64,000 nt of DNA from a bacterium (GTDB lineage: Bacteria; Patescibacteriota; Minisyncoccia; Phycocordibacterales; JAKAEA01). Position numbers and translations under genes: made by a program. The stretch covers positions 454,045-518,044 of the forward strand of contig JAKAEA010000001.1 in the NCBI GenBank assembly GCA_021818465.1. The letters run 5' to 3'. Below the pieces are notes generated by a model. It saw only the letters and a program-made list of their open reading frames with translations. It searched no databases and was not told the DNA's origin. Of this stretch, positions 18,758 through 35,682 are shown piece by piece (the stretch's first letter is position 1; every line of letters begins with the position of its first letter).

Positions 18758-19576
18758 TTACATATGTTCTAAGTTCGTAGCAACTAAAAGATTTTTGAGT
18801 ACCTGTATAGTTTCTTCGGGCCCTTGTACTGCTACACATAAAGCACCAACAGTGAGTGCGGGCGCATCATTGCCGTCAGGAAAAAGTTCATCACCAACAT
18901 ATACCATTCGTTGCGGTGTTATAGAAAATGTTGTTAAAAGTTTTCGAAGACCATACGCTTTATCAATACCAGCACGAGTAATATCAATAGATGTTGCGCC
19001 GCCAATATGAATAGAGAATCCTGGCAATAAAGGCTTGAGGGCGGCTACCATAGCAGATCGTTTACGATGCTCAGGATCCCACGTTTTTTTTATATCCAAA
19101 GGCGCTTCCATACCATAGGCTGAAAAAGTAATTTGTGTGGAGCGATCTTCAATAATCGGGCCATAGGTCGTCGGTGGTTGCACAAAACCAACAGTAGTAA
19201 ACGCGTGTGCAAAAGCTTCTCTGATCTTTTGTTTTTCTTCGTCAGTAAACGGCTGATCCTGTGTACATTGCCATTTATTAGTATGAGCATCATAGCGACA
19301 CAGCTCACCACCATCAGTCGGCAAAATAGAGAGATTGGCTAACAAAGAAATGGGGCAGGGGAGATTATGTAAAAATTGACTCTGAAACTGCGCAAACGAT
19401 GCGCCAGAAATAACTGCAACTTTCCAATGTTGTAAAATTTTAATCAGTACTGCTGCCATTTCTGGTTGAAGAGGTGATTTACTTGGTGCTAAAGTCCCAT
19501 CCAGATCAAAAGCAATAATATCAATATTTTTAGGTACTATTTGGGCTATATTTTTAAGCGAAATTAGAGCACACAT
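18758..19576 (-). CDS. Eukaryotic-type phosphomannomutase-like HAD-IIB hydrolase
   Basis: FDLDGTL motif, and the C-terminal GGATSIDI..GIDKAYGL....VYVGDELFPDGNDAPAL pattern parallels PMM (GG.ISFDV..GWDK.Y.L....FFGNETSPGGNDFEI). Confidence 0.6.
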   Translation of the reverse strand: MCALISLKNIAQIVPKNIDIIAFDLDGTLAPSKSPLQPEMAAVLIKILQHWKVAVISGASFAQFQSQFLHNLPCPISLLANLSILPTDGGELCRYDAHTNKWQCTQDQPFTDEEKQKIREAFAHAFTTVGFVQPPTTYGPIIEDRSTQITFSAYGMEAPLDIKKTWDPEHRKRSAMVAALKPLLPGFSIHIGGATSIDITRAGIDKAYGLRKLLTTFSITPQRMVYVGDELFPDGNDAPALTVGALCVAVQGPEETIQVLKNLLVATNLEHM

Positions 19577-19682
19577 ATCAACACCTCTACTATACCAAAA
19601 ACACCAAGAAAATCGTATACTTATATTGTTACAAACCGCCCACAAGACCGTAGTATTTGTAGGGCGATTTGGTTTAAAAACC

Positions 19683-20234
19683 ATGCGCCAATTAGATAAT
19701 GAAAAAGAAATTATAGCCCACTGTCAAAATGGCGAAACCGCTTTTTTTGGAGCGTTATATGATCGCTACGTAAGAACCATATATAGTTTTATTTACTATA
19801 AAACATTCCACAAAGAAACAGCGGAAGATCTTACCAGCGAAACTTTTTTCAAGGCCCTAAACCACATCAAAGCCGTTGATCCTAATCGATCATTCCAGTC
19901 ATGGCTTTACAAAATTGCACAAAATTGTGTAATTGATCATTTTCGTCGCGAACGAAAAACAGAAAATGTTGATGATGTGTGGGATATTGCCGACAACACC
20001 AATCTTGAAATTGACGCTAATGTTTCTTTACAAATTAGTGCCTTACGTAAAGAACTTGGCCAACTCTCACATCTACAACGCGATATTATCATTATGCGCG
20101 TATGGCAAGAGTTGTCATATCGAGAAATAGCTGAGATAGTGGGGAAGAGTGAAGCGAGTTGCAAAATGAATTATTCACGAGCAGTTAAACACTTAAAAAA
20201 AGTCGTCCCTATCACCATAGGTATTACTGATTAA
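19683..20234 (+). CDS. ECF-type RNA polymerase sigma factor
   Basis: Sigma-70 region 2 and region 4 HTH (SYREIAEIVGKSEASCK). About 184 aa. Confidence 0.8.
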   Translation: MRQLDNEKEIIAHCQNGETAFFGALYDRYVRTIYSFIYYKTFHKETAEDLTSETFFKALNHIKAVDPNRSFQSWLYKIAQNCVIDHFRRERKTENVDDVWDIADNTNLEIDANVSLQISALRKELGQLSHLQRDIIIMRVWQELSYREIAEIVGKSEASCKMNYSRAVKHLKKVVPITIGITD

Positions 20235-20238
20235 ACCA

Positions 20239-21573
20239 ATGAACTCAATAGAAGAAATTTTAGCCGAACTATACGCTATTGATTCTAGCTTCAAACGCCA
20301 TGAGGTAGATTTGCGATTACTTATTAAGCGCTTACGCCTTACTAAGCCAGATTTTTCTATTGATGACGCATTCGTGCGGCGCTTGCGTTCCGATATTCTC
20401 CATGGTGGCAAACCTAAACCAATTGGCTTTTTAGTTCGCTCTTATTTTATTCAAACAGGTAAAAATCTTTTTCGCTCAAGTGCTTTTGGCACCGCTGTCG
20501 CTCTCGTATTACTTGTACCTTTAGCTTATGCCGCCCAAATTTATCATAAAAATCAGTCCGGATCGTATCAAGTAGATAACGCTTTTGTATCTCTTGGTCA
20601 ACAGCAAGAAATTTCTTATAAACCACAAAACGCTTTTGGCCCTGTCGCGCTGACTACTGTTTCCGCAACAACCGCGGCGACAAACACACCACCTTTGCCA
20701 AGTTCTTCTATTTTTGCCACCATTGCAAGTTCGAGCGCCAGCACAACTGAAATGGCTTCAGTAACAGCCACAGGAACCCCTCCTGCATATATTTTTACTG
20801 GTATAGCACCCTCATTACAAACAACCACGGCAAATGTTATAGAGACTGACACTAGCAGCGATGCTCGTTCTGAACTCCTAGATAACATTCAAAACCTCGG
20901 TTTTGAATTAACAAACATAACGTCTATTGCTAATGCTAATAACAGTGTGGGGGGAATTGAGGTTCAAGAATCTCAACCATTTGGATATATTGTTTCTATG
21001 AATTTAAACAAAATGAGTATTGCAATATCTAAAAATTCAGCAGTGTGGCCAGACGAAACATACCTACCTCTCTCTTCCGACACAAGCGCCACCGACACGA
21101 TCACGGTAGCTTTAAACTTTTTACGATCTCACAATATTGACACATCGAACTACGGACCAGCCACTCTTCTTTCAGAAAATAGTGCTAGCTCTACAGCAAC
21201 TGTTCTCTTGCCACTTATTATTCATAAACAAAATGTGTACAATCCTGATGGAAGTTTGTATGGTATGCTCGTTTCCGTTGACCAAAAATTAGAAAAAGTA
21301 ACGGGAGTAACCGGTATCTCACTTCAAAAATATACGGCGTCACCATATCCAGTTGAAAATAATTTTACAAACATTTTGAACGAACTCAACGCCACTTCAA
21401 CACTCGCAACCAGTACCGCAACTGACACACCACAACTTGAAACACCACTCGCTGGTCTTATTCGCTATACCACCAACAATTACGAATTCTTTGTACCTGG
21501 TCTTATATTCCCCGTTGCTTCCTCTACAAATTCTATTACCATATCACTCTTGAAAGACTCTGCTGGAAAATAA
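20239..21573 (+). CDS. Putative anti-sigma factor / single-pass membrane protein with an S/T-rich extracytoplasmic domain
   Basis: Immediately downstream of the ECF sigma gene (4-nt gap). It has an ~80-aa cytoplasmic N-terminus, one TM segment, and a large exported domain. Confidence 0.45.
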   Translation: MNSIEEILAELYAIDSSFKRHEVDLRLLIKRLRLTKPDFSIDDAFVRRLRSDILHGGKPKPIGFLVRSYFIQTGKNLFRSSAFGTAVALVLLVPLAYAAQIYHKNQSGSYQVDNAFVSLGQQQEISYKPQNAFGPVALTTVSATTAATNTPPLPSSSIFATIASSSASTTEMASVTATGTPPAYIFTGIAPSLQTTTANVIETDTSSDARSELLDNIQNLGFELTNITSIANANNSVGGIEVQESQPFGYIVSMNLNKMSIAISKNSAVWPDETYLPLSSDTSATDTITVALNFLRSHNIDTSNYGPATLLSENSASSTATVLLPLIIHKQNVYNPDGSLYGMLVSVDQKLEKVTGVTGISLQKYTASPYPVENNFTNILNELNATSTLATSTATDTPQLETPLAGLIRYTTNNYEFFVPGLIFPVASSTNSITISLLKDSAGK

Positions 21574-21600
21574 CATAACACTACGGTATACTACAAAAAA

Positions 21601-23058
21601 ATGAAAAAGAACTTAATTGCTATTGCGGCGTGCATCTTTGTGGCTGCAGCTATGGTGGTGTATGCCTTTTATTTTATTCCTCAACCAAACATACAAGCTT
21701 TTCACACCGTTGCAGTACAAAAAATGAACTTACAACATGTTGTGACTGCATACGGTACAGTAACTGCTGCTACGGAAGATAGTTTAGCTTTTCAGAAAAA
21801 CGGTACACTCAGTTCGGTCAATGTCGCCGTTGGTGATCACGTCACCGCAGGAGAAGTGCTTGCGACACTCGATACCGCTTCCGATGCCGCAGCAGTTGCC
21901 GCTGCCCAAGCTACGTTAGCTGAACTCTCGCGCAATCTTACCCCCCAACAACAAGCAGTTGCTAGCTCAACTCTAGAAACCGCACAAAAAAGCGCTATTT
22001 CTGCCGTCGCTGGAGCATATACCACCATCCAAAACGCTATTACAAACGATTCCAACAGTCTCTTTACTAGTCCACAATCAGCGAATCCGACATTCATCGT
22101 ACAAACACAAACATTTAATCAACAACAACAAATTGAAGCAGAACAAGTGAAAACAATTCTCGATCTTCAGGCGTGGAGTGCAGAAATAGCTGCTGGTACC
22201 ACATCAGCCGAAAAACTTTTGAGCGATGCAAAACATTACACGAGTACTATTGCTGCGTTTATTAATACTATTTCTACAGCTATTACTGCATTCGCTCAAA
22301 TAAGTTCTCCGGCACAAACTAACGTAGCTACATATCTCGCCACCATTAATACCGCCAATACTGCCATAGTAAACGCACAAAATGAAATTACTAGCGCTCA
22401 AACAGCGTTGGCTGTTGCTCAATCAAATTACAATCTGCAACAAGCTGGCAATACAGCACAAACCATTGCCGCTCAAGCAGCAAAAGTGCAGCAGGCCCAA
22501 GCGACTCTCGCTGAAGATTCACTTATTGCACCTGTCGATGGCACAGTAACAGAATCGAGTGGCAATATTGGCGAAACCGTAAACGCAAACACGCCATTCA
22601 TCCACATTATTTCTGACACACCGTACCAAGTTGATACATATTTACCAGAGGATTCTATCGGTCTTATTGCCCTCAACCAAGACGCAACAGTGACATTAGA
22701 TGCGTACGGTCCCTCCGTTATGTTTCCTGCAAAAGTAGTAACTATTGATCCTGGTCAAACGCTGATACATGGCGTAGGAATGTATAAAGTTACACTTCAA
22801 TTTCTCCATAATGATTCGCGTATTAAAGATGGCATGACAGCTAACGCTACCATTGTTGTCGGCGAAAACGATGGTGTACTCGCAGTACCCCAAAGCGCCG
22901 TGCTAGCTAATGCTGGATCGCCACTGGTACTTGTGGCCACATCGTCCGTTCTCAAAACCAAAAACGTCACCGTAGGCATTACCGGCGCCAATGGTTGGGT
23001 TGAAATTGATCAAGGCCTTTCAGAAGGCGAGCGAGTAGTAACATTCGGTAATCAATAA
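21601..23058 (+). CDS. HlyD-family periplasmic adaptor (membrane fusion protein) with a long coiled coil
   Basis: N-terminal TM segment, biotinyl/lipoyl-like hairpin, an extended Q/A/T-rich helical hairpin, and a beta-barrel. Confidence 0.7.
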   Translation: MKKNLIAIAACIFVAAAMVVYAFYFIPQPNIQAFHTVAVQKMNLQHVVTAYGTVTAATEDSLAFQKNGTLSSVNVAVGDHVTAGEVLATLDTASDAAAVAAAQATLAELSRNLTPQQQAVASSTLETAQKSAISAVAGAYTTIQNAITNDSNSLFTSPQSANPTFIVQTQTFNQQQQIEAEQVKTILDLQAWSAEIAAGTTSAEKLLSDAKHYTSTIAAFINTISTAITAFAQISSPAQTNVATYLATINTANTAIVNAQNEITSAQTALAVAQSNYNLQQAGNTAQTIAAQAAKVQQAQATLAEDSLIAPVDGTVTESSGNIGETVNANTPFIHIISDTPYQVDTYLPEDSIGLIALNQDATVTLDAYGPSVMFPAKVVTIDPGQTLIHGVGMYKVTLQFLHNDSRIKDGMTANATIVVGENDGVLAVPQSAVLANAGSPLVLVATSSVLKTKNVTVGITGANGWVEIDQGLSEGERVVTFGNQ

Positions 23059-23063
23059 AACAT

Positions 23064-23750
23064 ATGAGCGAAACAACATCAACACACCAAGATCAGGAGC
23101 GCGAAACCGCCCACCACAAACAACCAGTTTTACTCGTTCGTATTCTTAAGAGCTCATGGTTTTATACCGTGCTTTTATGTTTGGCAATTCTCGGCACAGC
23201 TGGCGGATTTCTATATATGCGTATTACCAACTCTCGCGTATATACTGATACAGCAACAATCTCTGCACCGGAAATCGCTCTCGCACCCGATGTTTCAGGT
23301 ACTTTAGAAGCAGTATATGTGCAAGATGGTGATTTTGTTAAAGCTAATACTCCGGTCGCTCGCGTTGGCAACGAAATTATTAAAACGACTGTTGATTCTT
23401 TGGTCATTTCAGAAAATAACGATATTGGCGCGCTCTTTAACCCTGGTCAGTCAGTCGTCACTGTTATCGATCCTTCACAGTTACGCGTACACGCCCAAGT
23501 TGAGGAAGATAAGGGTTTGGATAGAATTAAAGTGGGCGACCGAGTTATTTTTACCGTTGACGCATTCGGTTCAAAAGAATTTGTTGGTGTTGTTTCAAGT
23601 ATTAGTCCAACCGCCACAGCTAGTGACGTTGTATTTAATATTTCTAACTCCCGCCAAGAACAAAATTTTGACGTCAAAATCCGTTTTGACACGAGCGCGT
23701 ATCCGGAATTAAAAAACGGTATGTCAGCACGTGCCTGGATTTATCAATAA
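23064..23750 (+). CDS. Short HlyD-like membrane fusion protein (no helical hairpin)
   Basis: TM segment plus lipoyl-like and beta-barrel domains. Second adaptor of the same module. Confidence 0.6.
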   Translation: MSETTSTHQDQERETAHHKQPVLLVRILKSSWFYTVLLCLAILGTAGGFLYMRITNSRVYTDTATISAPEIALAPDVSGTLEAVYVQDGDFVKANTPVARVGNEIIKTTVDSLVISENNDIGALFNPGQSVVTVIDPSQLRVHAQVEEDKGLDRIKVGDRVIFTVDAFGSKEFVGVVSSISPTATASDVVFNISNSRQEQNFDVKIRFDTSAYPELKNGMSARAWIYQ

Positions 23751-23768
23751 AACAAATGGGCGTCGCGA

Positions 23769-25349
23769 ATGGCTACAGCCACAACAACACTACGAGATAG
23801 GGCAGGGGGCATCACGGCAGCCGGCGGTACTCTGAAGTGGATTATTCTTCTCACGGTTATCATTGGCACATTTCTTGGTCGTCTTGATCAGACCATTGTT
23901 AATCTGGCCCTACCTAAAATCATTAGCGACTTTCATATTACCGTCAGCGCTTCAAGCTGGATTGCTACGGCATATATCATCGCCAACGCTATTTTCGTGC
24001 CAATTTGGGGCAAATTAGGCGATACAACAGGTCGAAAACGCGTGTACCTTTGGGGATTTGGTATTTTTATCGCTGGCTCCATACTTGCCGCTCTTTCTTG
24101 GAACCTTAGTTCTTTAATCGTATTTCGTATCATTCAAGCCGTTGCGAGTTCGGCGGATTATCCAACGGCAATGGCTATTCTTGTTTTTACATTTCCTGAA
24201 AATAGAGAGCGGGCACAAGCCTTGGGTATTTGGTCGGCATCATTTGCTGCCGCTTCAGTTTTTGGGCCGCTTATTGGTGGCCCGCTCATTGACGCATTCG
24301 GTTGGCGTTCGGTTTTTTGGGTAAACGTGCCAGTCGGTATTGTTGGTGTGGTAATGGCTTGGAGTTTTATTCACGAATCACATTCGATACGCCGACGTGT
24401 TGTTAAATTTGATTGGTGGGGAGCAACTATTCTCGGCATAGCTGTAGCCACACTTTCACTTGTCCTTGATCAAGGACAAAGTTGGGGATGGCTTTCGGCC
24501 GCAAGTAACGCGTGCTACGCAGTCACCCTACTAGCGCTTCTTATTTTTATTGCTATTGAATATGATCATCCTGAACCACTCGTTGATTTGAAATTTTTCA
24601 AAAATAATCTTTTTGTGAGTGTGCTACTTAATAACATTATTATTTTTATGGCTCTTATGGGTGGTATTTTCCTTGTTCCTATTTTTGCCCAAACATTTCT
24701 TGGTTACAGTGCCACCCAGGCTGGATATTTGTTTATCCCGATGGCATTCATGTTTGTTATTTCCGCACCACTGGGCGGCTCCCTTGTTGGTAGAGTAGAA
24801 ATGCGATGGGTGATTATGGTAAGCACATTTGTTGGTAGTATTGGAATATTTCTCCTCGCCGGCATTGATCCACGCTCAACAGCGTGGGATATTATTTGGC
24901 CACTTATGATAATGGCATTCGGAATGGGATTTGGTATGGCCCAACGAACCAACGCTATTGCAGTAGCCGTACCACCCGAAGAAATTGGTATGGCTTCTTC
25001 TATTTTAATGCTCGGTCGCAATATTGCTGGCGCTTTTGGTATCTCTGTATTTGCCACACTTCTTAATAATTTTATCAACAGCAATGTGTTAACGTTTGCA
25101 AAATTTAGCCATCTGAATCTTAACAATATTGGCAATCAACTTTCCAACGTCTTGCCAACAACTACTATTGCCACACCCGCCAACGCTCACGCTACTTTTA
25201 TTCAACTCATTATTCTTAAAGCTGAAGTATCTGGCTATGGTGATGTGTTCTTTTGGGCAGCAATTGTTATGTGTACTGGTGCCGTGCTCGCATATTGGAT
25301 TAAAGGTGGCAAACTCGACAAAAATAAAAAAGTTCATGTAGAAGGGTAG
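23769..25349 (+). CDS. MFS transporter, DHA2 (EmrB/QacA) family, 14 TMS
   Basis: DHA2 signature (LDQTIVNLALP..., GKLGDTTGRKR), about 14 hydrophobic segments, 526 aa. Confidence 0.85.
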   Translation: MATATTTLRDRAGGITAAGGTLKWIILLTVIIGTFLGRLDQTIVNLALPKIISDFHITVSASSWIATAYIIANAIFVPIWGKLGDTTGRKRVYLWGFGIFIAGSILAALSWNLSSLIVFRIIQAVASSADYPTAMAILVFTFPENRERAQALGIWSASFAAASVFGPLIGGPLIDAFGWRSVFWVNVPVGIVGVVMAWSFIHESHSIRRRVVKFDWWGATILGIAVATLSLVLDQGQSWGWLSAASNACYAVTLLALLIFIAIEYDHPEPLVDLKFFKNNLFVSVLLNNIIIFMALMGGIFLVPIFAQTFLGYSATQAGYLFIPMAFMFVISAPLGGSLVGRVEMRWVIMVSTFVGSIGIFLLAGIDPRSTAWDIIWPLMIMAFGMGFGMAQRTNAIAVAVPPEEIGMASSILMLGRNIAGAFGISVFATLLNNFINSNVLTFAKFSHLNLNNIGNQLSNVLPTTTIATPANAHATFIQLIILKAEVSGYGDVFFWAAIVMCTGAVLAYWIKGGKLDKNKKVHVEG

Positions 25350-25443
25350 GTGCCTCTTGCTTTTTACATACACACGAGTACTATACCTAATCAGATTCGT
25401 GGTAGCATAATTTTTTCTTGATACGAAAGAAAGGAGTTCTTGT

Positions 25444-25752
25444 ATGTTAAAGTTACAGCGCCATCCGGAACACCGTGGAATTCTTGCTCAGGTTGCAAAC
25501 ATAACCGACCAACCAGAATATGAAGTTCTTGTACATGCCATTTTGTCTGTTGACACAGAAACAACAAACAGAACAGATGCCGAAAAAAAAGCTCTCTTGC
25601 TTTTAGCGCACGTTAAAAGAACAGGTCGATTACCTGACAGCATCGTCGATCATTTTCTCCTACCAATACTGATAGGAGAAATAAAAATTCTTGATACCTA
25701 TGGCAAAGCTATTGATATCAAAAAGAAATTAGCGATGTTAAATCATGCCTGA
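25444..25752 (+). CDS. Hypothetical protein (102 aa)
   Basis: RBS AAAGGAG 7 nt upstream. No recognisable domain. Confidence 0.45.
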   Translation: MLKLQRHPEHRGILAQVANITDQPEYEVLVHAILSVDTETTNRTDAEKKALLLLAHVKRTGRLPDSIVDHFLLPILIGEIKILDTYGKAIDIKKKLAMLNHA

Positions 25753-25772
25753 CACATTTCATGGAGGTATGT

Positions 25773-26084
25773 ATGGCAAATTCAGAAGAAGCAGCCAGAG
25801 AATGGCACGTAACAGAATTTGTAAAAGATGTTGTTCGGCTTATAAAAGGAAATGAGAAAAAGGACGGAACAGCAAGTATTTATCACACTACTGTTCCAGG
25901 CGGTCTACTAACCATCGAGAGGGCATTACAACAAGGTCTTTTAATTATCAAAAGGGATCACGGAACATTTAATGACTATCAGATAACTTTTAAAGGCCTT
26001 ATGCTTTATTGGGAGGAAAGTGGTGAAGTTTTTTTGGTAAGTTGCCCAGTTGCTGACACCATAGCTGATACGCCGCCTTCGTAA
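25773..26084 (+). CDS. Hypothetical protein (103 aa)
   Basis: RBS GGAGG 6 nt before ATG 25773. No recognisable domain. An intrinsic terminator overlaps its 3' end (see 26072..26105). Confidence 0.45.
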   Translation: MANSEEAAREWHVTEFVKDVVRLIKGNEKKDGTASIYHTTVPGGLLTIERALQQGLLIIKRDHGTFNDYQITFKGLMLYWEESGEVFLVSCPVADTIADTPPS

Positions 26085-26105
26085 AACCGTTGGCGGCTTT
26101 TTTTA
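26072..26105 (+). terminator. Intrinsic terminator (GCCGCC...GGCGGC then TTTTTTTAT)
   Basis: GC stem followed by a T8 run at the end of the two-gene unit. Confidence 0.5.
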
Positions 26106-26271
26106 TCTTTTTTTTATCAGACCCATCATTCTCAAAGGGAAAGTTGTCGGCTATACCAACGTCTTTTTTGTGGAAAATTCATTAGCAGCACGACCTGTTT
26201 TTAGATATACTACAGGAAGAAAAAGACTGGTTTCTATATTTTTTTTAAAACCAGACCGTCATAGTTCAGAT

Positions 26272-26300
26272 ATGAGCAGCACTTGCGGGGCTGCTCTTTT
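26272..26300 (+). terminator. Orphan intrinsic terminator GAGCAGC-ACTTGCGGG-GCTGCTC-TTTTT
   Basis: A 7-bp perfect stem plus U-tract, about 190 nt after the previous terminator, with no credible ORF between them. Confidence 0.45.
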
Positions 26301-26427
26301 TAGTTTTATCAATTCTGCCGAAATCTGCCCAAAAACTATCCTTACCTGTAGGGAAGCACCTGACGCAAAAGTATAGATGCGTCGCACAATATATCTTTTA
26401 CGACATTGTCTTATTTTAAAAGGCCTT

Positions 26428-28353
26428 TTAAGAAAGAACTTTTAAAATCTTTTTTATGGAGCCTGTTGCCACACCACACACCGTATCAGCACCACCGTAG
26501 TAAACATATAAAGTATCGTCGCGAATCACTGCCCCGCATGGAAATACAACATTTGCGACTTGGCCTTCTTTCTCATACTTCATATGTGGTTCTAAAACCC
26601 AATCAGTAGTGCGCGCCACCACTTTTGTAGGATTCGTTGCGTCAAGAAGTGCTAAGCCAAGACGGTATTCAGAAGAATCCTCGGCAATACCATGGTACAC
26701 GAACAAATACGCTGACGTACCATCTTCCCTTTTGACGAGCATCGGTGGGGTATTGAGACCAATTTTTTTAGCATCCCACATACCGTGACGCGGTTCTAAC
26801 ATGACCGCATAGTCAGTGACCGGTTTTGGTTGCTCTATAGTAATTGAACTAACACATATAGCGTTATTGATGCGATGGAAAAAAAGTGTGCCATGATGAG
26901 CAGTGTGCATAATACACGCATCTTTATCGTCCACACCCACCGGCGAAATAAGCACTGGTTTTTCCCACGACCACTTCCCTTTTGTATTTTCCAAAAAATC
27001 AGAAACGGGAGCAGATGTCAACGCCACCGCCGGCGCTTGTGTGCCGTTAAACGCGGTGTAGCACATATACACCCTATCACCAATTCGCGTCACCCGCGGA
27101 TCTTCACAACCAGAATTTCCATTAGGAATATTTTTTAATTCAAAAGGTTCACGCGGTTCATATAGTGGCATAGTATCACGCGTTATGATACGCACACCGT
27201 CACGTGTCGTCGCATGACCAATACGTGATGTATTATCAGCAGACATGGCGCGATACAATATATGTGTTGTGCCATCTATTTCAAAAGCTGCTGGATTAAA
27301 TACTGCTTTTTTTTCCCACGCATTGTTGGTAGGTGTCAGAATAGGATTTTTAGAAAAACGAGTCAGCACCGATTCCCCCATCATTGTTGCAAGTAAATCT
27401 GCAAGACGCACTTCAGCAGCAGCACATACCGTGTCAGCAGCACCATAATAAATACGAACCATATCGCCCACCAGAAGCGCGCTCGACGGAAATACCACAT
27501 CGGGCACTGTTCCATACCGCTCGTACACCTCCTCTGGTACCAAGAGTGGCCCACGTGTTCGACCAATAATTTTTCGTGGATTTTTGAGATCAAGAAGAAT
27601 AGCTTCTACGCCAAAAATTTTTTGATGTTGACTGTAATAGTGGCGAATGTGCGAATAAAAGATGAGCCAACCGGCTGGAGTTTTCAGAGGCGTTGAACCA
27701 ATCTCAATACGTTCATCCTCAGCACGTTTAAGATTAAACGACCACTCGTCAATGTGCGTCAACCATTCACGCCAATATGTTTCTGACCACATTTGTTCTG
27801 GTGAATCAAATTGTATAAGAGCGGTTTTTGAGGGCGGTGTATCGGTATGCACGGTAAGAACGGCTGTTAATTTTCCACCGATTTTTTCAGGAAAAAGCGT
27901 CATTGCTTTAGCGTTAAACGGTGTTACGAGATGTCGTTCTTGAATTGTTTTTAAATCCTTACTCAACGCGACAGCTACACGAATACCATCAGCAGAAAAA
28001 GGAAAATGCGACAAAGCTGTATAAAAAATATAATGCGTACCGTTGAGGTACGTTACCCGCGGATCTTCACAACCATACCGTTCCCACATTTCTTGCGGCG
28101 TTATAAACGGCGTTATATCAGAAAAATGTAAGCCATCAGGACTCGCGGCTCGGCCAATTGTTGAGAGAAAAAATTGGCCACGAGCACCTGAAGTTTCAGC
28201 AAGCGGTCGTGGCTCAGCAACCGCCCGAAACACCATATCAACACGCTTCCCTATCGCAACGAGCGAAGGATTAAACGTAGCATACGATCGCCACACATCA
28301 TCTGTAGTGGGACGTACAAGTGGATTTTTCTCATAACGACGAACAACAAACAT
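26428..28353 (-). CDS. Fused tandem GH130-family protein (two complete mannoside-phosphorylase-like domains)
   Basis: Both halves carry GH130 hallmarks (FNPS/FNPAA, GCEDPRVT, YYGAADT). Confidence 0.75.
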   Translation of the reverse strand: MFVVRRYEKNPLVRPTTDDVWRSYATFNPSLVAIGKRVDMVFRAVAEPRPLAETSGARGQFFLSTIGRAASPDGLHFSDITPFITPQEMWERYGCEDPRVTYLNGTHYIFYTALSHFPFSADGIRVAVALSKDLKTIQERHLVTPFNAKAMTLFPEKIGGKLTAVLTVHTDTPPSKTALIQFDSPEQMWSETYWREWLTHIDEWSFNLKRAEDERIEIGSTPLKTPAGWLIFYSHIRHYYSQHQKIFGVEAILLDLKNPRKIIGRTRGPLLVPEEVYERYGTVPDVVFPSSALLVGDMVRIYYGAADTVCAAAEVRLADLLATMMGESVLTRFSKNPILTPTNNAWEKKAVFNPAAFEIDGTTHILYRAMSADNTSRIGHATTRDGVRIITRDTMPLYEPREPFELKNIPNGNSGCEDPRVTRIGDRVYMCYTAFNGTQAPAVALTSAPVSDFLENTKGKWSWEKPVLISPVGVDDKDACIMHTAHHGTLFFHRINNAICVSSITIEQPKPVTDYAVMLEPRHGMWDAKKIGLNTPPMLVKREDGTSAYLFVYHGIAEDSSEYRLGLALLDATNPTKVVARTTDWVLEPHMKYEKEGQVANVVFPCGAVIRDDTLYVYYGGADTVCGVATGSIKKILKVLS

Positions 28354-28358
28354 ATATA

Positions 28359-30281
28359 TTATTTTAAAATAATTGCATGGTCCTGCGTACCGCTCGATTT
28401 TCGACGATGTTTAATTTTTTCTAAAAGTTCTGCGAGTGGTGCTGTGGCTACACACACATGTCGATCTGCGCCACCATAATAAATGGAAATGTTTCCATTG
28501 TGCACAATAGAACCGCATGCATATATAACACCAGGCTTACCACTGTTTTCGTACCACATATCTGGAGCTAAAATTGGATATGCTGAACGAGCAATAACTT
28601 TTTCAGGGTGGTGCGCATCAAGTAATAAAGCACCGAGTTTGTATTTACCTGGTTCAGATTTTTCGTGACCATGATATAACACCAACCAACCAGCTGGAGT
28701 TTTTATGGGAGGCGGACCAGCACCGCGCACTCGAGCATCCCATCGACCTGATATTTCCGGTATAGTAATAGGATCAACGCTATGTATCTGCCGATGCCCC
28801 TTAGCGAGCTCCTCGAGTGTGTGCACATATTCAATGCGTACCGTTGGTGTGACGCTATGCAAAATAGCAAATTTTCCGTCAATTTTTTCAGGAAAAAGTA
28901 CCCAGTTTTTATGGCGCTGACCAGGTGGCGAAATGAGAATCGGCTCAGTCCAACGCCAACGTTTATTGAGAAAATCTTCACGATTAATTGAACTCGCACC
29001 CATGCGAATAGAATTCCAATCATCAAAAGCGGTAAAAGTTAGATATATTTTATCTTCAATTTTTACTAAACGAGGATCTTCTACGCCGCCCCAACTGCCC
29101 CCCGAAGGATAGATTGTGGGACCATATTGTCGCTCTGCAATATCAGCAATTGATCGCAAACGTGGTAAAGCAAAAACCGGCTCCGTAGATCGATCGTCAA
29201 AATTAAATCCGTCGGCACTAGACGCATACCCGAGCACTGAGAGGCCGTGCGCACCGACAGCTCGATACAATACATGCACACGACCGTTGTCATAGATAGC
29301 CGCCGGATTAAACACTGCCTCATTTTCCCATTCATAATGAGGTCGGGCTTGCAATATCGGATTCGCGTGGTGTCTATTTAAAAAACGTCGTTCGGGTGGG
29401 GTGGCAAGTAATGGTACTGATTGCGGCAGCGGAATGGTAGCACGAATAATAGAGTTGTCCGCAGCAATCCAGTAGAGTGTCATCACACGTTCTCCATTTG
29501 GTTTTTCTGCATCCGTAAATGCAACGCCGAGGGGCAGTACCGCTCCTTTCTCGCTATACACAAGACTTTCCCATACCGGCACCGGAGACCGCCAGAGTAT
29601 TTTTTTAGGATTATCCGCAGCAAAAAGTATTGCACCTGCAGCTACACGCGTGAGTATACCCTCTGTACGTGAAGCATCATATATCACCAAAATACCTTCT
29701 GGTACCCGTCGTGTGCCAATAGGTACAAGAGGGCCACTATCAAATGCATTGTGTCGTGATGTGTATAATAAATCTGGCTCTTGTTTCCAATGTCGTAGGT
29801 CGCTAGAAAACAGTGCTGTGGTAAACAATCCGGAACGATATAGCCAATGATGACGTGGTGTTGAGGTAGCAAACACAAAATCAGGTATTGCTGTAGTGGC
29901 TAACACTTCTTTTTCTAAAGGGATTTCGCTTCGTACTAACCACGAATACACATCGTGCGCGGTAGCCACAACCAGCGAACGTGTATCATGTACTTCTTTG
30001 ACATACACAAGAACCCACGAATCACCGTCAACAAAAAAACGAAATTTTGAACAGAAGCGTGGATTTTCTTTAACGCCATTAGAATAGCGAATAGAAACTT
30101 CTTTACCAAGAAGACCAAAATAGCCCGTCACCTCTTCCCAAAGAATAGTGAGGGTCACTCGCACACCGCTTTCGCGGCGAACAAAGAGACCTTGTGTAGC
30201 GTTATACGTTAAGACACCGAGTGGTTGGCAATCCTTAAAACGAGGGAGCGTATGAGAACGAGTAATTTTAGTGCGAACCAT
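28359..30281 (-). CDS. Fused double GH130-family protein (divergent N-terminal half, canonical C-terminal half)
   Basis: C-terminal half has FNPAA, GVEDPRLV and YYGGAD. The N-terminal ~300 aa is propeller-like and more diverged. Paralog of the adjacent gene. Confidence 0.7.
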   Translation of the reverse strand: MVRTKITRSHTLPRFKDCQPLGVLTYNATQGLFVRRESGVRVTLTILWEEVTGYFGLLGKEVSIRYSNGVKENPRFCSKFRFFVDGDSWVLVYVKEVHDTRSLVVATAHDVYSWLVRSEIPLEKEVLATTAIPDFVFATSTPRHHWLYRSGLFTTALFSSDLRHWKQEPDLLYTSRHNAFDSGPLVPIGTRRVPEGILVIYDASRTEGILTRVAAGAILFAADNPKKILWRSPVPVWESLVYSEKGAVLPLGVAFTDAEKPNGERVMTLYWIAADNSIIRATIPLPQSVPLLATPPERRFLNRHHANPILQARPHYEWENEAVFNPAAIYDNGRVHVLYRAVGAHGLSVLGYASSADGFNFDDRSTEPVFALPRLRSIADIAERQYGPTIYPSGGSWGGVEDPRLVKIEDKIYLTFTAFDDWNSIRMGASSINREDFLNKRWRWTEPILISPPGQRHKNWVLFPEKIDGKFAILHSVTPTVRIEYVHTLEELAKGHRQIHSVDPITIPEISGRWDARVRGAGPPPIKTPAGWLVLYHGHEKSEPGKYKLGALLLDAHHPEKVIARSAYPILAPDMWYENSGKPGVIYACGSIVHNGNISIYYGGADRHVCVATAPLAELLEKIKHRRKSSGTQDHAIILK

Positions 30282-30298
30282 TACTCGTAATCTCCTTC

Positions 30299-30646
30299 TT
30301 ATACTCGACCATATTTATCTTCAATTCTTGTAATATCATGTTCGTCAAAAAAACCGAATGAGACTTCAAGCACCTGACAATCCTCCTGCTGTCCAGCAAG
30401 ACGATGGTTCGTTTGACGGGGAATAAAAAATTCATCACCCGGCTTAGCCGTTGTTTCTTTCTCATCAATAGTGACGAGAGGTTCTCCCGAAAGCACTCGC
30501 CAAAATTCACTGCGGCCTTCGTGACGCTGCAAACTAATTGCCTCGCCCGCCTTCACCACAATGATCTTTACCGTACACGGTTCGTTAAACGCAAACTGTC
30601 GAAACGAGCCCCACGGTTTCCTGACGGTCACCGGCTCACGCATCAT
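30299..30646 (-). CDS. Standalone type II mannose-6-phosphate isomerase-like cupin
   Basis: KPWGSFRQF...ISLQRHEGRSEFWRVLSG...GDEFFIP..NHRL matches the PMI/GMP C-terminal cupin. Confidence 0.7.
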   Translation of the reverse strand: MMREPVTVRKPWGSFRQFAFNEPCTVKIIVVKAGEAISLQRHEGRSEFWRVLSGEPLVTIDEKETTAKPGDEFFIPRQTNHRLAGQQEDCQVLEVSFGFFDEHDITRIEDKYGRV

Positions 30647-30782
30647 ATATGCATTATAGTGTATTTACTCTAACAACAATAACCTGTGTCTGTGGATAAT
30701 ACCTATTGATTTTTTATAAAAATAAAAAGCCCCGCTCATACGAACGAGGCAAAAATACAAACATGCTATGTAGGGCTACCAT

Positions 30783-31487
30783 TTATTCACATTTTACAAG
30801 CACACCATCGGCAACTGATTGATTCTCAACGCGAGAACCTATGTCAACAATCGCATTCATGATTTGTTCTGAAACAGTCCGAACATAGTCTCTGTTTAAC
30901 TTGCCAGATTGTCTAGAAAATAACAATGGCTCACCAAAATGTACCTGAACGTTTCCCCGTCTTAAAAAATCTCCGATGGTAGAACGGTGCGGTGGTGTAC
31001 CGCGGATATATACTGGAATTACCGGAGCACCTGATAGCAGTGCGAGTACGGCCGCTCCTTTTTTCGGAAATTTCAGGGCGCAATCAAGATCGGGAGGGCC
31101 TTCTGGAAAGATTCCTACAAGATCTCCTTCTTGCAAAGCACGAATAGCTGGTAAAAGACTAGCCAAACTTTTCACCGAAAGATCTACGGGAATCGCTCCG
31201 TCCAATTTGCAAGACCATTGTATCAAACCGCCAATAAAAGGGCGCTTGAATAAACGTCGAGCAGCAACAAAACGAATCAATCTAGAAGGACTGGCTATCA
31301 AGAGTATTGGAGGGTCAAGATCGCCCGTATGATTAGCGACAATAATTGCCGGGCCAGTTGCAGGAATTCGACATGCCCCCACAATTCGCCAACGATGCCA
31401 GAATCGGAGATATATACTGAATGCTGACAATAACACTGTTTGCAACGACGACAGAGATTTCGTGTGGTGGTTAGATGTAGTACACAT
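30783..31487 (-). CDS. Lysophospholipid acyltransferase (PlsC/LPLAT family)
   Basis: NHxxxxD box (ANHTGDLD) and FPEG box. RBS GGAGG 5 nt before ATG 31487. Confidence 0.7.
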   Translation of the reverse strand: MCTTSNHHTKSLSSLQTVLLSAFSIYLRFWHRWRIVGACRIPATGPAIIVANHTGDLDPPILLIASPSRLIRFVAARRLFKRPFIGGLIQWSCKLDGAIPVDLSVKSLASLLPAIRALQEGDLVGIFPEGPPDLDCALKFPKKGAAVLALLSGAPVIPVYIRGTPPHRSTIGDFLRRGNVQVHFGEPLLFSRQSGKLNRDYVRTVSEQIMNAIVDIGSRVENQSVADGVLVKCE

Positions 31488-31597
31488 CGTAGCCTCCTTT
31501 CTTGTAAAGAACAAAAATAACAGAATAAATATACCTAGTTATTGACAATGTGTCAATAATCTTAAATACTATATTTACTGTAACCTATCATACACAT

Positions 31598-32737
31598 ATG
31601 CGAGAATATGCGAGAAAAACACGTAATTCAAACCGAGATATATATAAAGGTATTTTTCTGTGGTGCGCGTTGCCGTTGCAAATTTTTTTTTATAACCTTT
31701 TTCATAGGCGCCGCTCTCTACACACTACCCCTAAAATTCTCATCATACACACCTGTCTTATAGGTGAATTTGCCGCTTCACTACCAGCGTTAGCAACTTT
31801 TCTGGAAAAAAATCCTGGAGCAATAGTGGACATAATGGTCTCCCCTCCTCTTAAACCGTTGGTTGAAAAAATACATGGTATTAGAAACGTATTCTGTGCT
31901 ACATCGATGTTTAATCGAACCTACGAGCACGATACGCACACGAATCAAAATTTCGATGTATATACAAAAATTATTATTCTTATTATCGGGCCAGAAGCTC
32001 AGGCCCTCTTATCAAAAATAAAAACGAATCGCATAGAACTTCGTTTTCTTGTGCTTATTCGCTATGGTCTTCACCTTGGAATTTGTTTGTTATTTCGGAG
32101 ACGTCCACGACCGTGGTCATATACTACATTTCAACTTTTAGGTCTCACACCTCAAGATTCTCTGACTATTAATTTTCATTCCTTTTTCCATTTTACTCAA
32201 TCGGATGAAGCCCGCATCCAGAGTCTACAACCTCTGCAAACTAATGAAATAAAAGTCATTATTCATACTGGCGGTGGCTGGGCAAAGTGTTGGAACAATG
32301 ATAAATGGATCGAGCTTCTAAAACAGTTGCATCATGTGCACGCTCTACGTTTTATTTTTATTGGTAATAGCAATCACGAAGAGGCTGATTATCAATATAT
32401 TGCCACTCGATTATCATTCCCAGTCTATTCACTCATAGGCAAAACAAACGTCGCTGAATCATTGCTTGTATTACGCATGAGTAATTACTTTATCGGTGTC
32501 GATAGTGGACCGAGGAATCTTGCTCACGTAGTTAACTTACCCAGTATTGTTCTCATGGGACCCGGGCCACACATTTTTACTCCTCCGAATCCTCGCGATA
32601 TTACTATTGATCGTTCCGGCGAACGTGGCCTTTATCAGATGTTTTTTCGTTCTCGCCATCCATTCATTGAAAAAATTAAACCAGCCGATGTTCTTGCCGC
32701 TTTCCGTGCGCGTATTTCTAGTGTACAAAATAATTGA
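31598..32737 (+). CDS. Glycosyltransferase family 9 (heptosyltransferase-like)
   Basis: C-terminal GT9 signature VDSGPRNLAHVVNLPSIVLMGPG. The N-terminal core starts near KILIIHTCLIG. The start is ambiguous (see findings). Confidence 0.65.
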   Translation: MREYARKTRNSNRDIYKGIFLWCALPLQIFFYNLFHRRRSLHTTPKILIIHTCLIGEFAASLPALATFLEKNPGAIVDIMVSPPLKPLVEKIHGIRNVFCATSMFNRTYEHDTHTNQNFDVYTKIIILIIGPEAQALLSKIKTNRIELRFLVLIRYGLHLGICLLFRRRPRPWSYTTFQLLGLTPQDSLTINFHSFFHFTQSDEARIQSLQPLQTNEIKVIIHTGGGWAKCWNNDKWIELLKQLHHVHALRFIFIGNSNHEEADYQYIATRLSFPVYSLIGKTNVAESLLVLRMSNYFIGVDSGPRNLAHVVNLPSIVLMGPGPHIFTPPNPRDITIDRSGERGLYQMFFRSRHPFIEKIKPADVLAAFRARISSVQNN

Positions 32738-33293
32738 GTACAATTTTATACACCCCAAATGCTAGTAGGGCCGCAAGTACCACTATAGTAATAGCTAAAT
32801 TAAAATTGTGAAGTATATTATTTATAGTTATATAAAATCGTCCAAAATAGTATCCAATGACAGTAAATACTGCCGCCTTACCAAGAGCCGCAACACTAAT
32901 AACTTGCAGATACTTCTTCATATCTGTTTTAGTCACCCCAGCAGTAAGTAGTATCGGTAGATTGGTTACATCTACGATTTTTCCCAAAAAAACAGTCGAG
33001 GCAAGATGTTTTTTATAATGTTCCTCTGCAAATTTTAAACGTTCATTTGTTACGCCCACATAATGTCCGTATCGGGGAATAATGGTGTTCCGTCCCAAAC
33101 GACCGATCCAATACAATCCTAAATCACCGATAATATCGCCGAGCACAGCAAAACCATACACAATAAAAACATTCAGAAATCCGAGCGAAGCTAAAAAAGA
33201 AGCAATGACTGTTGTGATTGGCCCTTCAATAATATCAACGGGCAAAAGAATAAAATATTTGTATGTTTCTAATAGATGAATAAATAAACTCAT
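32718..33293 (-). CDS. DedA family membrane protein
   Basis: VTT/DedA core (GDIIGDLGLYWIGR). Translationally coupled to the upstream oxidase (1-nt gap). Confidence 0.7.
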   Translation of the reverse strand: MSLFIHLLETYKYFILLPVDIIEGPITTVIASFLASLGFLNVFIVYGFAVLGDIIGDLGLYWIGRLGRNTIIPRYGHYVGVTNERLKFAEEHYKKHLASTVFLGKIVDVTNLPILLTAGVTKTDMKKYLQVISVAALGKAAVFTVIGYYFGRFYITINNILHNFNLAITIVVLAALLAFGVYKIVLNYFVH

Positions 33294-33294
33294 A

Positions 33295-35049
33295 TCAGAG
33301 TGCTTGGGACGTATCGACGTGCGTGAGCGCCTGTTCCCAAGTAACACCAACTTTTTTGTGTGGATTAAAGATTCCATCAGGATCAAAAACGTGCTTAGTT
33401 TTCTCAAACAGCGCGTACACCTCCGGGCCATACATTTCTTTCAAAAAACCAGAACGAACGAGACCGTCATTGTGTTCGCCTGTGATGGAACCGTGATACT
33501 GGAAAATAAGTTCGTTAACCTTAGGGGCCAATTCAGCAATCATCTGCGTTGATTTCGGATTGTGGAGATCCATAAGCGGAATGATGTGAAAATTACCGTC
33601 GCCAACATGGCCAGCAATGGTGTAGGTCATCGGATATTTGTCCAAGATAGCATAGAGCTTCGGTAAAAATTCTGGCAAATATTTTGGCGCCACCACAAAG
33701 TCATCAATAAACGGTGCGGTACGCAAACCTTTAACATGTTGACGGAGCATATTGAAGCTCTCACGTCGAATGGTCCAGAATTTTTGCACTTCACGCGGCG
33801 ACTGAGTGATACGCGACGGTGCACTAAACTCTTGCTTGGCAAATTCATGCACACTGGCTTGGGCTTTTTGAGCCGCAGCAAGTGCTGCCGCATCATTGTC
33901 AGCAGTAAACTCAGCCATTAAAACAAGTTTGGGCATACCGCCAGTGAGCACCGCCCAAAATTCAGGTAAAAATTGAATTGCCAAATTTATAAGATTCCCC
34001 TTCATTCGGTGAATCATGATTGGAAAAAACTTTACTGCAAGTTTAAAAGTATGATCGTCGTACGATTCCAAACTTTCTGGTTTAAATTGCAAAAGATGGT
34101 TGGTGATATCACCGAGACGATTCATATCTTTTAAGAACAGGACGAGTAAGCGCGAATGCGTACGCGGTCGAATCAAGCGAACCTTAATTTTTGTGACAAA
34201 ACCAAGCGTGCCTTGGGAACCAACGAGTAATTTGGTGATATCAAAAACGCCCCGCTTTGTGTCGAGTACATTCCACAGATAATAGCCAGCAGAATTTTTA
34301 CTCACTGGCGGCTTGGCCTTTTTCAAAAGTACATCGTTTTTTTCCACCAGCTCACTCATTTGTCGATACACTTCCCCTTCCAAGGTTTGAAGTTTTTTCT
34401 TCTCCTCTAACTCGACAAGCGAGAGCGGTTTAAACACGTACTCATTACCATCGCGTAAAACCATATGTAGTTCCAATACATAATCTTCTGTTTTTCCATA
34501 GAGTAAGGTCTTCTCACCACCGGAATTATTTGAAACCATACCACCAATCGTGCACAGTTCTCGTGATGCTGGATACGACGGTAAAATCATATCCCATTTG
34601 AGCGTAGCCTTATCGAAATCACGAAAATACACCCCGGGTTCAGTAATGGCCCAACCAGCAGTCGTCACGTCGCTCGTCACGCCATCATGAGCTCCCTCAG
34701 TGGTCAATTTTCCTAACTCTTCATGGATTTCGCCAATATGATTAAAGTACCGTGTAAAATCAACGGAAATTGATGATGTAAGTGGCCCACCGCTCATATC
34801 CGTTCCTGCCGAGCGCGCCGTGAGGGAGACGTCGACACCGGCTTTCTTTTGGGTCTCGGCCCACCGTACCAACCGCTTCACATCGTCGGTATGTTTAGGA
34901 AACACTACTAATGTTGGTTTTATAATAAAAAGACTAGCATCTTTACTGTGGCTCGTTAAGGTTTTTTCATCGCTGGCAATATCTCCTTCAAAACCTGTAT
35001 CCTTGATAGCTTCAGTAAAGCGAGCGGACATATCGTCGGAAGAGTTCAT
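33295..35049 (-). CDS. FAD-linked oxidase (PCMH-type FAD-binding domain plus C-terminal oxidase domain), 584 aa
   Basis: FAD-binding segment ...VVFPKHTDDVKRLVRWAETQKKAGVDVSLTARSAGTDMSGGPL... Confidence 0.75.
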   Translation of the reverse strand: MNSSDDMSARFTEAIKDTGFEGDIASDEKTLTSHSKDASLFIIKPTLVVFPKHTDDVKRLVRWAETQKKAGVDVSLTARSAGTDMSGGPLTSSISVDFTRYFNHIGEIHEELGKLTTEGAHDGVTSDVTTAGWAITEPGVYFRDFDKATLKWDMILPSYPASRELCTIGGMVSNNSGGEKTLLYGKTEDYVLELHMVLRDGNEYVFKPLSLVELEEKKKLQTLEGEVYRQMSELVEKNDVLLKKAKPPVSKNSAGYYLWNVLDTKRGVFDITKLLVGSQGTLGFVTKIKVRLIRPRTHSRLLVLFLKDMNRLGDITNHLLQFKPESLESYDDHTFKLAVKFFPIMIHRMKGNLINLAIQFLPEFWAVLTGGMPKLVLMAEFTADNDAAALAAAQKAQASVHEFAKQEFSAPSRITQSPREVQKFWTIRRESFNMLRQHVKGLRTAPFIDDFVVAPKYLPEFLPKLYAILDKYPMTYTIAGHVGDGNFHIIPLMDLHNPKSTQMIAELAPKVNELIFQYHGSITGEHNDGLVRSGFLKEMYGPEVYALFEKTKHVFDPDGIFNPHKKVGVTWEQALTHVDTSQAL

Positions 35050-35680: not shown

Positions 35681-35682
35681 TC

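Follow-up and report, generated by a model that had tools for sequence, protein, structure and literature searches.

A candidate mannose 1-phosphate-centred operon with GH130 domains recurs across Patescibacteria

A predicted mannose 1-phosphate-centred module in a patescibacterial genome

In a 64 kb window of patescibacterial DNA (the whole stretch of 64,000 nucleotides that was analysed) we found four genes, all on the minus strand, which we read, with a probability of roughly 45%, as a cytoplasmic module centred on alpha-mannose 1-phosphate (Man-1-P), whose net effect would be the ATP-free breakdown or salvage of a beta-1,2-mannoside to hexose phosphates and activated mannose. Three of the genes stand side by side: a cupin gene (30299-30646; 115 aa), which comes first and encodes a stand-alone protein resembling type II phosphomannose isomerase (PMI), then gene B (28359-30281; 640 aa), with one intact GH130 domain and one degenerate GH130-like domain, and then gene A (26428-28353; 641 aa), with two GH130 domains. 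The fourth gene (18758-19576; 272 aa), encoding a HAD-IIB phosphohexomutase of the eukaryotic phosphomannomutase (PMM) or PgmH type, is unlinked in this genome, 6.9 kb from the operon on the same strand. We favour this reading because alpha-Man-1-P links all of the parts and because the closest described system is a Thermoanaerobacter gene cluster, to which we return at the end.

The four open reading frames (ORFs) coincide with NCBI gene calls on DAIEME010000001.1 (assembly GCA_027341405.1), and Pfam and NCBIfam profile searches place their products in the families proposed in an earlier note on this DNA, so that both the positions and the family names given there hold. The cupin gene, B and A are taken as one operon because the gaps between them are only 17 nt (cupin-B) and 5 nt (B-A) and a terminator-like hairpin (30729..30750, minus strand) lies upstream, between an acyltransferase gene and the cupin gene. 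In this hairpin, a consensus match only, 6 of the 9 base pairs of the stem are GC and the sequence TTTTTATTTT comes next; its presence suggests that cupin-B-A is transcribed separately from the PlsC-like acyltransferase gene. A promoter scan returned fewer sites than it did in shuffled sequence, and therefore we claim no promoter. None of the proteins encoded by the module has a signal peptide, a hydrophobic N-terminus or a transmembrane segment in a Kyte-Doolittle scan (not SignalP), by which the GH130 proteins are predicted to be cytoplasmic.

The module recurs across the candidate phyla radiation

Gene A has more than 100 full-length homologues (49-79% identity) in genomes named Parcubacteria, Paceibacterota, Nomura-, Zambryski- and Taylorbacteria, all of them Patescibacteria, the group also called candidate phyla radiation (CPR). 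It is strongly conserved, since only about 12 representatives are left of the full-length family after clustering at 50%. By an alignment-based metagenome scan, together with a search for the encoding contigs, we collected 82 non-redundant loci, of which 66 leave room for a B-type gene upstream of A. In 65 of these 66 such a gene is there, in 56 cases on the same strand and within 150 nt.

For an unbiased view of the surroundings, all neighbouring ORFs were then clustered in those 31 loci whose flanks reach at least 5 kb upstream and 3 kb downstream. The cupin recurs in 25 of these and a PMM-type HAD in 19, where orthologues of the HAD protein described here (37-70% identity) are encoded inside the GH130 operon. 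A different HAD, of the Hydrolase_3 family, occupies the same slot in six loci, and 15 loci carry a gene for a 143-aa nucleotidyltransferase (NT) of the cytidylyltransferase fold. These neighbours are nearly all on the same strand as the module; the usual gene order is NT-HAD-cupin-B-A, with the NT and HAD genes overlapping by 4 nt, and the remaining recurrent neighbours are all housekeeping genes. The earlier note had described the route as dispersed, which is true of this genome, but not of most related loci, where the HAD gene is part of the operon.

One locus, L040 (L numbers denote loci of the collection), has another gene in place of that for the cupin. Its cupin slot, directly upstream of B-A, holds a 459-aa bifunctional Man-1-P guanylyltransferase/PMI (L040:5824-7200; TIGR01479, 468 bits against a cut-off of 373), and genes for GAPDH and RpiB follow downstream of A (L040:10640-12133 region). 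The two GH130 genes are also found fused. Four proteins of 970-1110 aa (P0014, P0015, P0020, P0043) join the C-terminal domain of B (B-C) to both the N-terminal (A-N) and C-terminal (A-C) domains of A, and five of about 700 aa (P0134, P0138, P0140, P0143, P0155) join B-C directly to A-C; the order of the domains in these natural B/A fusions always follows that of the genes. Synteny in dozens of independent CPR contigs thus supports a functional link between the four gene products. A route centred on Man-1-P, as the earlier note had proposed, is supported likewise by the synteny of the PMI-type cupin, the PMM-type HAD and both GH130 genes, and by the guanylyltransferase/PMI of L040.

Two side observations concern the genes at the head of the operon. 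Roughly half of the CPR loci have the NT gene as the first of the operon (L004:7237-7668, with homologues in L016, L022, L030, L033, L035, L036, L039, L043, L044, L060, L077 and others). The best model for its product is RfaE domain II (heptose 1-phosphate adenylyltransferase), at 69 bits against a cut-off of 181, and the next is TagD. The combination of cupin isomerase, HAD and NT recalls the ADP-heptose pathway (GmhA, GmhB, HldC) in its logic, and because of this it is conceivable that the NT makes an activated heptose or an unusual nucleoside diphosphate (NDP)-mannose. The second observation is that, where the PMM-type HAD is missing, the alternative HAD stands between NT and cupin (L022:5336-6136, L033:7183-7947, L035:7661-8437, L036:6713-7513, L039:7658-8407, L031:1613-2419). 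It has about 255 aa and the motifs FDVDGVLVPRG and GDNYND, and is a non-orthologous replacement, or possibly a phosphatase instead of a mutase.

Only gene A encodes a true double GH130 protein

Both A and B belong to GH130. Pfam Glyco_hydro_130 (PF04041; cut-off 26) matches A with 293 bits in two stretches and B with 155 bits in one (residues 303-623), and the five-bladed beta-propeller fold that characterises CAZy GH130 and PF04041 is present. In A, the N-terminal domain (A-N; aa 1-326, 27376..28353, minus strand) matches 9FJ8 (E 1e-34) and TM1225 (E 1e-25), and scores 156 bits with NF058598 against a cut-off of 550. The C-terminal domain (A-C; aa 327-641, 26428..27375, minus strand) aligns over its full length to the beta-1,2-mannobiose phosphorylase 7FIP (E 2e-44). 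An AlphaFold2 (AF2) model of the whole protein has a pLDDT of 92.7 (about 93 for A-N) and a pTM of 0.89, which indicates a fixed two-domain assembly.

Gene B is built differently. Its C-terminal domain (B-C; aa 297-640, 28359..29393, minus strand) is an intact GH130, while the N-terminal one (B-N; aa 1-296, 29394..30281, minus strand) has no Pfam match. More sensitive comparisons connect B-N to the family, both to Uhgb_MS by phmmer (E 1.4e-5) and to the A-C family by HHalign (98.4% probability, E 4e-15, 242 columns), and its AF2 model is all-beta with a pLDDT of about 85-95. However, it reads CSKFRF in place of the catalytic GCEDPR motif and has lost all residues of the phosphate site as well as those at the Lys, Arg and His positions. 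B-N is a remote, degenerate and probably non-catalytic GH130 homologue. Of 53 related loci only 12 encode it, and many of the B orthologues, with about 365 aa, consist of one domain only. The earlier note had described two double-GH130 fusions; from the alignments, this description fits A only, B being one intact GH130 behind a degenerate domain that lacks the catalytic Asp.

We considered, and rejected, the idea that A and B are recent tandem duplicates of a double-domain gene. In HHalign profile comparisons B-C and A-C are the closest pair (E 3e-98), A-N is more distant from both (1e-63 and 2e-58), and B-N, often missing altogether, has diverged much further still. As to rarity, the double GH130 architecture, called unusual by the earlier note, is indeed so among curated CAZy entries (4 GH130-GH130 proteins among 1592 entries in 2018; PMC7660257), but it is common in metagenomic CPR data.

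Active-site residues suggest different chemistries for the three intact domains

Published active-site residues were mapped onto the domains via alignments to Teth514_1788 and Teth514_1789, with the constant distance of 18 residues from the Lys/Arg position to the phosphate-binding or 'switch' Arg as an anchor, and were counted over 115 A-family and 112 B-family sequences. The assignments are made by sequence position and not from AF2 coordinates. As references we used UhgbMP (catalytic D104; phosphate pair R168/H231; R59, Y103, R150 and D304 at the +1 subsite; PMC7660257), Uhgb_MS (R47, E136, K184, R202, R242; PMC12814180) and BT3780 (K199, E227, E268; PMC4599007). Two rules are of particular importance here. 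The phosphate-binding Arg (UhgbMP R168, Uhgb_MS R202) is regarded as a feature of every GH130 phosphorylase (PMC12814180, PMC7660257), and beta-1,2 specificity is determined by a Glu, instead of Tyr, next to the catalytic Asp and by a Lys at the position of UhgbMP R150 or BT3780 K199 (PMC4599007, PMC7660257).

Much of the site is common to the three intact domains. The +1 subsite Arg (R43 in A-N, R368 in A-C, R340 in B-C), the Glu-Asp pair formed by the beta-1,2 Glu and the catalytic Asp (E96-D97, E417-D418, E401-D402) and the beta-1,2 Lys (K149, K477, K458) are all invariant, and the C-terminal Asp is invariant in A-N (D307) and A-C (D623) and present in 111 of 112 sequences in B-C (D606). 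The predicted linkage is therefore beta-1,2 for all three. The earlier note had asked whether the GH130 halves keep their catalytic and phosphate-site residues: the Asp is kept in three of the four domains (D97 and D418 in A, D402 in B), with B-N the one without it, and the Arg/His phosphate pair is found only in A-C (R494, H554), not in A-N or B-C.

It is at the phosphate site that the domains part. A-C has the switch Arg (R494), a second basic residue (K530) and the phosphate His (H554) in 115 of 115 sequences, a pattern equal to the 'GPs-beta-1,2' signature D/R/H/R/E/K/D of PMC7660257 Table 2, and by the published rules it looks like a beta-1,2-mannoside phosphorylase. A-N has Thr at the switch position (T170, in 106 of 115) and never Arg; its second basic position varies (His in 75, Gln in 31, Arg in 9), and at the phosphate His it reads S234-H235 (YSH, not YHG). 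Two carboxylates, D171 and E217, stand at a distance of one and two residues from where the basic residues were lost and are invariant (115/115), and no such residues were noted in A-C or B-C. A-N thus departs from the phosphorylase pattern and resembles the basic-to-acidic swap of GH130 hydrolases, so that it is probably hydrolytic. In B-C the switch position (476) holds Ser in 70, Gly in 21, Asn in 15 and Arg in only 3 of the 112 sequences, while the second basic residue (R519) and the phosphate His (H537) are each present in 109. By this alignment B-C retains a beta-1,2-type site with three of the four phosphate contacts, a configuration tied to transferases with weak or absent phosphorylase activity (PMC12814180). 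The claim that all GH130 halves are phosphorylases is not supported, the Arg being invariant in A-C only.

The cupin and HAD proteins resemble mannose phosphate enzymes

The cupin scores 69.6 bits with PF01050 MannoseP_isomer (cut-off 23.6) and 50 bits with Cupin_2, and aligns to positions 359-467 of TIGR01479 GMP_PMI, that is, to its C-terminal PMI domain. The motif of type I/II PMIs, S-x-Q-x-H-x-x-R (PMC9602691), is present as S38, Q40, H42 and R45. In the 45 syntenic CPR homologues Q40, H42, R45, E47 and H81 are invariant (45/45), and the type II C-terminal tail fdE.Di.R.eDkYgR is common to them; the second His of the cupin HxH, which is Gly here, varies across the family. The protein has the sequence hallmarks of a type II PMI and is a predicted isomerase.

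The HAD protein scores 39 bits with PF03332 PMM (cut-off 22.4) and 41.7 bits, also above the cut-off, with Hydrolase_3, and does not reach the cut-off of the Cof subfamily TIGR00099 (49 bits against 137). Its nucleophile motif DxDxT is present as FDLDGTL. Among solved structures the best relative is the alpha-phosphoglucomutase (alpha-PGM) of Lactococcus lactis, 4BND (E 2e-33, full length), followed by PMMs (1e-17 to 1e-9), with the Cof-type 1RLM far behind (1e-4). By these comparisons it groups with the PMM/alpha-PGM mutases and not with the Cof phosphatases, as the earlier note had expected; clustering with the latter was the outcome which that note had named in advance as speaking against its proposal. 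With regard to the sugar, the operon context elsewhere (PMI, GMP_PMI and GH130 genes) favours mannose, whereas the closest solved protein is glucose-specific. It needs to be added that the ORF can be extended to 308 aa (ATG at 19684; 18758-19684, minus strand), in which case it overlaps a divergent sigma-factor ORF. The 272-aa form matches the NCBI call and puts DxDxT at residues 23-27, as in PMMs.

Breakdown of a beta-1,2-mannoside is the favoured reading

The family memberships, residue patterns, synteny and gene fusions described above are direct observations; from them we infer substrates, the direction of flow and a division of labour among the domains, as follows. A-C would catalyse the reversible phosphorolysis of beta-1,2-linked mannosides to Man-1-P, the PMM-type HAD mutase would interconvert Man-1-P and mannose 6-phosphate (Man-6-P), and the type II PMI cupin would interconvert Man-6-P and fructose 6-phosphate (Fru-6-P). 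In relatives, the small NT or a classical GDP-mannose pyrophosphorylase (GMP) may draw Man-1-P into a nucleotide sugar. B-C and A-N are expected to act on the same beta-1,2-mannoside without being canonical phosphorylases: A-N is probably hydrolytic, and B-C might be either a weak phosphorylase or a sugar-nucleotide-dependent transferase, with B-N as a putative dead scaffold domain. Net flow is modelled on the proposal made for the Thermoanaerobacter Teth514_1785-1796 cluster. The strength of this scheme is that alpha-Man-1-P, as a shared intermediate, explains why PMI, PMM, GMP or NT, and GH130 occur together.

Several observations weigh against it. A simple phosphorolytic route leaves it unexplained that the phosphorylase Arg is missing from two of the three catalytic domains. 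A purely catabolic route would have no use for the NT gene with which about half of the operons start, and in this genome neither the NT nor the alternative HAD has a homologue in the 64 kb window (tblastn, E<=1). The HAD gene lies outside the operon here, and its product scores higher with an alpha-phosphoglucomutase (119 bits) than with the best of the solved PMMs (67 bits). With NCBIfam NF052550, the beta-1,2-mannobiose phosphorylase equivalog (cut-off 450), A scores 381 bits and B 224 bits; both miss the cut-off, and by this measure they are relatives, not orthologues, of those phosphorylases. Beta-1,2-mannans are rare in nature, and no transporter, binding protein or secreted glycanase recurs near the module in the clustering of neighbours at the 31 loci. 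For these last two reasons we do not pinpoint an external source of the substrate.

The same points give some room to an endogenous reserve cycle, a 'bacterial mannogen', in which the module would both make and remobilise an intracellular beta-1,2-mannan in many Patescibacteria. Its steps would lead from Fru-6-P to Man-6-P (cupin), Man-1-P (HAD) and NDP-mannose (NT or GMP); B-C would prime or elongate the chain from NDP-mannose, A-C would elongate or degrade it by reversible phosphorolysis, and A-N would trim it by hydrolysis. The whole machinery would thus consist of GH130 domains only, diverged to transferase-like (B-C), phosphorylase (A-C) and hydrolase-like (A-N) types. On one hand, such a cycle accounts better than salvage for the NT that heads many operons, for the Arg-less B-C and for the missing import and secreted enzymes, and gives a role to every gene of the extended operon, including the NT or GMP of about half of the loci. 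Three instead of four phosphate contacts would suit a transferase, the lack of the switch Arg in B-C is shared with MTP1/2, the strict transferases of Leishmania GT108, and all tested beta-1,2 GH130 phosphorylases accept GDP-mannose (PMC12814180). The unusual conservation of A, about 50% identity across CPR classes, would likewise suit a fixed endogenous substrate. On the other hand, the literature that we searched holds no report of a beta-1,2-mannan from any bacterium, and the transferase activity of GH130 enzymes is possibly physiologically irrelevant according to the authors who described it (PMC12814180). Moreover, the NT is only a weak relative of RfaE domain II and TagD and is absent from this window, and another residue could compensate for the loss of the Arg in B-C. 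We therefore regard a reserve cycle as unlikely, though it is the first alternative to which we would turn.

Returning to salvage, which we prefer, its literal form in the earlier note takes all four GH130 domains for phosphorylases, with host beta-mannans or N-glycan cores (beta-1,4 Man-GlcNAc, beta-1,4-mannobiose) as the scavenged substrates, while PMM and PMI funnel Man-1-P to glycolysis. It is true that the characterised bacterial GH130 phosphorylases are all catabolic, that the proteins are predicted to be cytoplasmic, that the PMI and PMM partners are confirmed by family, and that GAPDH and RpiB genes adjoin the module in L040. However, one of the four domains has no catalytic Asp and two more have no phosphate Arg, every intact domain has the Glu/Lys pair of beta-1,2 enzymes and not the Tyr/Arg pair of beta-1,4 or Man-GlcNAc enzymes, and a conserved uptake system is missing. 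Nothing speaks directly for the proposed host substrates, and in this form, which conflicts with the residue counts, the idea is improbable.

An equally slim chance is left to a sugar other than mannose, with the HAD a general alpha-phosphoglucomutase and the GH130 domains acting on another beta-glycoside. The best solved relative of the HAD is an alpha-PGM, its gene is unlinked here, and the equivalog cut-offs are missed for all mannoside enzymes; yet orthologous HAD genes elsewhere share an operon with PMI-type, GMP/PMI and GH130 genes, and Man-1-P alone is used by all of the characterised GH130 phosphorylases that were tested (PMC7660257). Least probable of all is envelope glycoconjugate biosynthesis, in which the GH130 domains would attach beta-mannosyl residues to a surface glycan linked to lipid or protein, with the module as the source of activated mannose, for although the operon in this window is flanked by genes for PlsC-type acyltransferase, GT9, GT2, DedA/VTT and FAD-linked oxidase proteins and many operons have an NT or GMP, the envelope-type neighbours are not conserved (housekeeping genes recur instead), the GH130 proteins are soluble without a membrane anchor, and the hairpin parts the acyltransferase gene from the operon.

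Other features of the window

Upstream of the operon, at 30783-37063, lie genes for the PlsC-like acyltransferase (30783-31514), a GT9 heptosyltransferase-like protein (31550-32737), three DedA/VTT-domain proteins, a 584-aa FAD_binding_4/FAD-oxidase_C protein (33295-35049) and a GT2. The GT9 is odd for an organism without lipopolysaccharide. This run is not conserved beside the GH130 module in other loci, the GT9 and acyltransferase being found only in the window's own contig, and as synteny elsewhere is lacking, we rejected the envelope-type neighbours (PlsC, GT9, GT2, DedA) as parts of the system.

Between the HAD gene and gene A, on the plus strand (19626-25349), are genes for an ECF-type sigma factor, a 444-aa Ser/Thr/Ala-rich protein without Pfam match, two YknX/HlyD-like periplasmic adaptors and an MFS protein of the type with 14 transmembrane segments. 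This run resembles an efflux module, not a sugar importer. The sigma-factor gene is divergent from the HAD gene, and their upstream regions overlap. Two small plus-strand ORFs (25444-25752 and 25761-26084; 102 and 107 aa), both called in the NCBI record and without a Pfam match, converge on the 3' end of gene A. Otherwise the window holds housekeeping genes typical of CPR (type IV pilus, mur/fts genes, aminoacyl-tRNA synthetases), and Rfam and tRNA scans of the 64 kb found nothing relevant, with one tRNA-Glu only.

Novelty and significance

CPR bacteria are thought to have very few sugar-handling enzymes. The 640-aa tandem GH130 belongs to this small set; it ranks with the more conserved non-housekeeping CPR proteins, and its gene is part of a recurrent operon with mannose phosphate enzymes. 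All of the components belong to known families. What is new is that the operon is CPR-wide, that a hydrolase-like and a phosphorylase-type GH130 form a fixed tandem, that there is an Arg-less paralogue with an optional dead domain, and that a small NT is linked to them. A full-text literature search on GH130 or mannoside phosphorylase in Patescibacteria, candidate phyla radiation and Parcubacteria gave no description of the module; 'two enzymes of family GH130' are merely listed for a Microgenomates genome (PMC7143001).

If the module is catabolic, as we favour, it would be an ATP-free entry point for hexoses, and it predicts that a beta-1,2-mannoside is taken from hosts or the environment. 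If instead a cycle of synthesis and turnover is true, this would be the first mannogen-like reserve in bacteria, and these minimal cells would have an unrecognised carbon and phosphate buffer. For enzymology, the family is a ready-made system in which to dissect phosphorylase, hydrolase and transferase chemistry, as its naturally co-evolving GH130 domains, some with the phosphate Arg and some without, are fused in a fixed order.

Comparison with known systems

The closest described system to the CPR module is the Teth514_1785-1796 cluster of Thermoanaerobacter sp. X-514, which encodes a beta-1,2-oligomannan phosphorylase (Teth514_1788) and a beta-1,2-mannobiose phosphorylase (Teth514_1789), with GH130_6 as the subfamily (PMC4264767). 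These two beta-1,2 phosphorylases differ in chain-length preference and stand beside the Man-1-P guanylyltransferase that they feed (PMC4264767). However, the Thermoanaerobacter enzymes are single-domain proteins, both with the Arg/His pair, whereas in CPR the domains occur in tandem or have degenerated, and two of the domain types lack the Arg. The cluster also has an ABC importer, a GH5 and a GT4, none of which belongs to the CPR module, where PMI and PMM genes are found instead.

The mannogen cycle of Leishmania, with the GT108 enzymes MTP1-7 (PMC12814180; cited in PMC4264767), is similar in logic, not in membership. In both cases paralogous five-bladed propeller enzymes would act on beta-1,2-mannan, Arg-containing phosphorylases stand against Arg-less transferases or transferase-like domains, and the Leishmania system cycles among hexose phosphates, GDP-mannose and an intracellular polymer. 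Yet Leishmania is a eukaryote and its enzymes are classed by CAZy as GT108, its transferases have His at the switch position where B-C has Ser, Gly or Asn, and no such polymer is known in CPR.

Single components have their own counterparts. A-N is like the Bacteroides GH130_3 beta-1,2-mannosidases BT3780 and BACOVA_03624 (PMC4599007) in that the Asp acid, the adjacent Glu and the beta-1,2 Lys are kept, the basic phosphate binders are lost and invariant carboxylates stand near their positions; those enzymes, however, are secreted or periplasmic with signal peptides and use E227 and E268 as bases, while A-N is predicted to be cytoplasmic and has D171 and E217, a likeness by sequence position only. 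The HAD protein shares the HAD-IIB class, the PMM-family cap and DxDxT with L. lactis PgmH (4BND, to which it aligns over its full length) and with eukaryotic PMM1/PMM2. Finally, the cupin is like the type II PMI domain of GMP/PMI proteins (AlgA/ManC; TIGR01479) and like the stand-alone type II mannose phosphate isomerases of picocyanobacteria and cyanophages (PMC9602691), with the S-x-Q-x-H-x-x-R motif, a DDI-R-x-D-YGR-like tail and a single stand-alone domain; it has no GMP domain, however, and the second His of HxH is not conserved.

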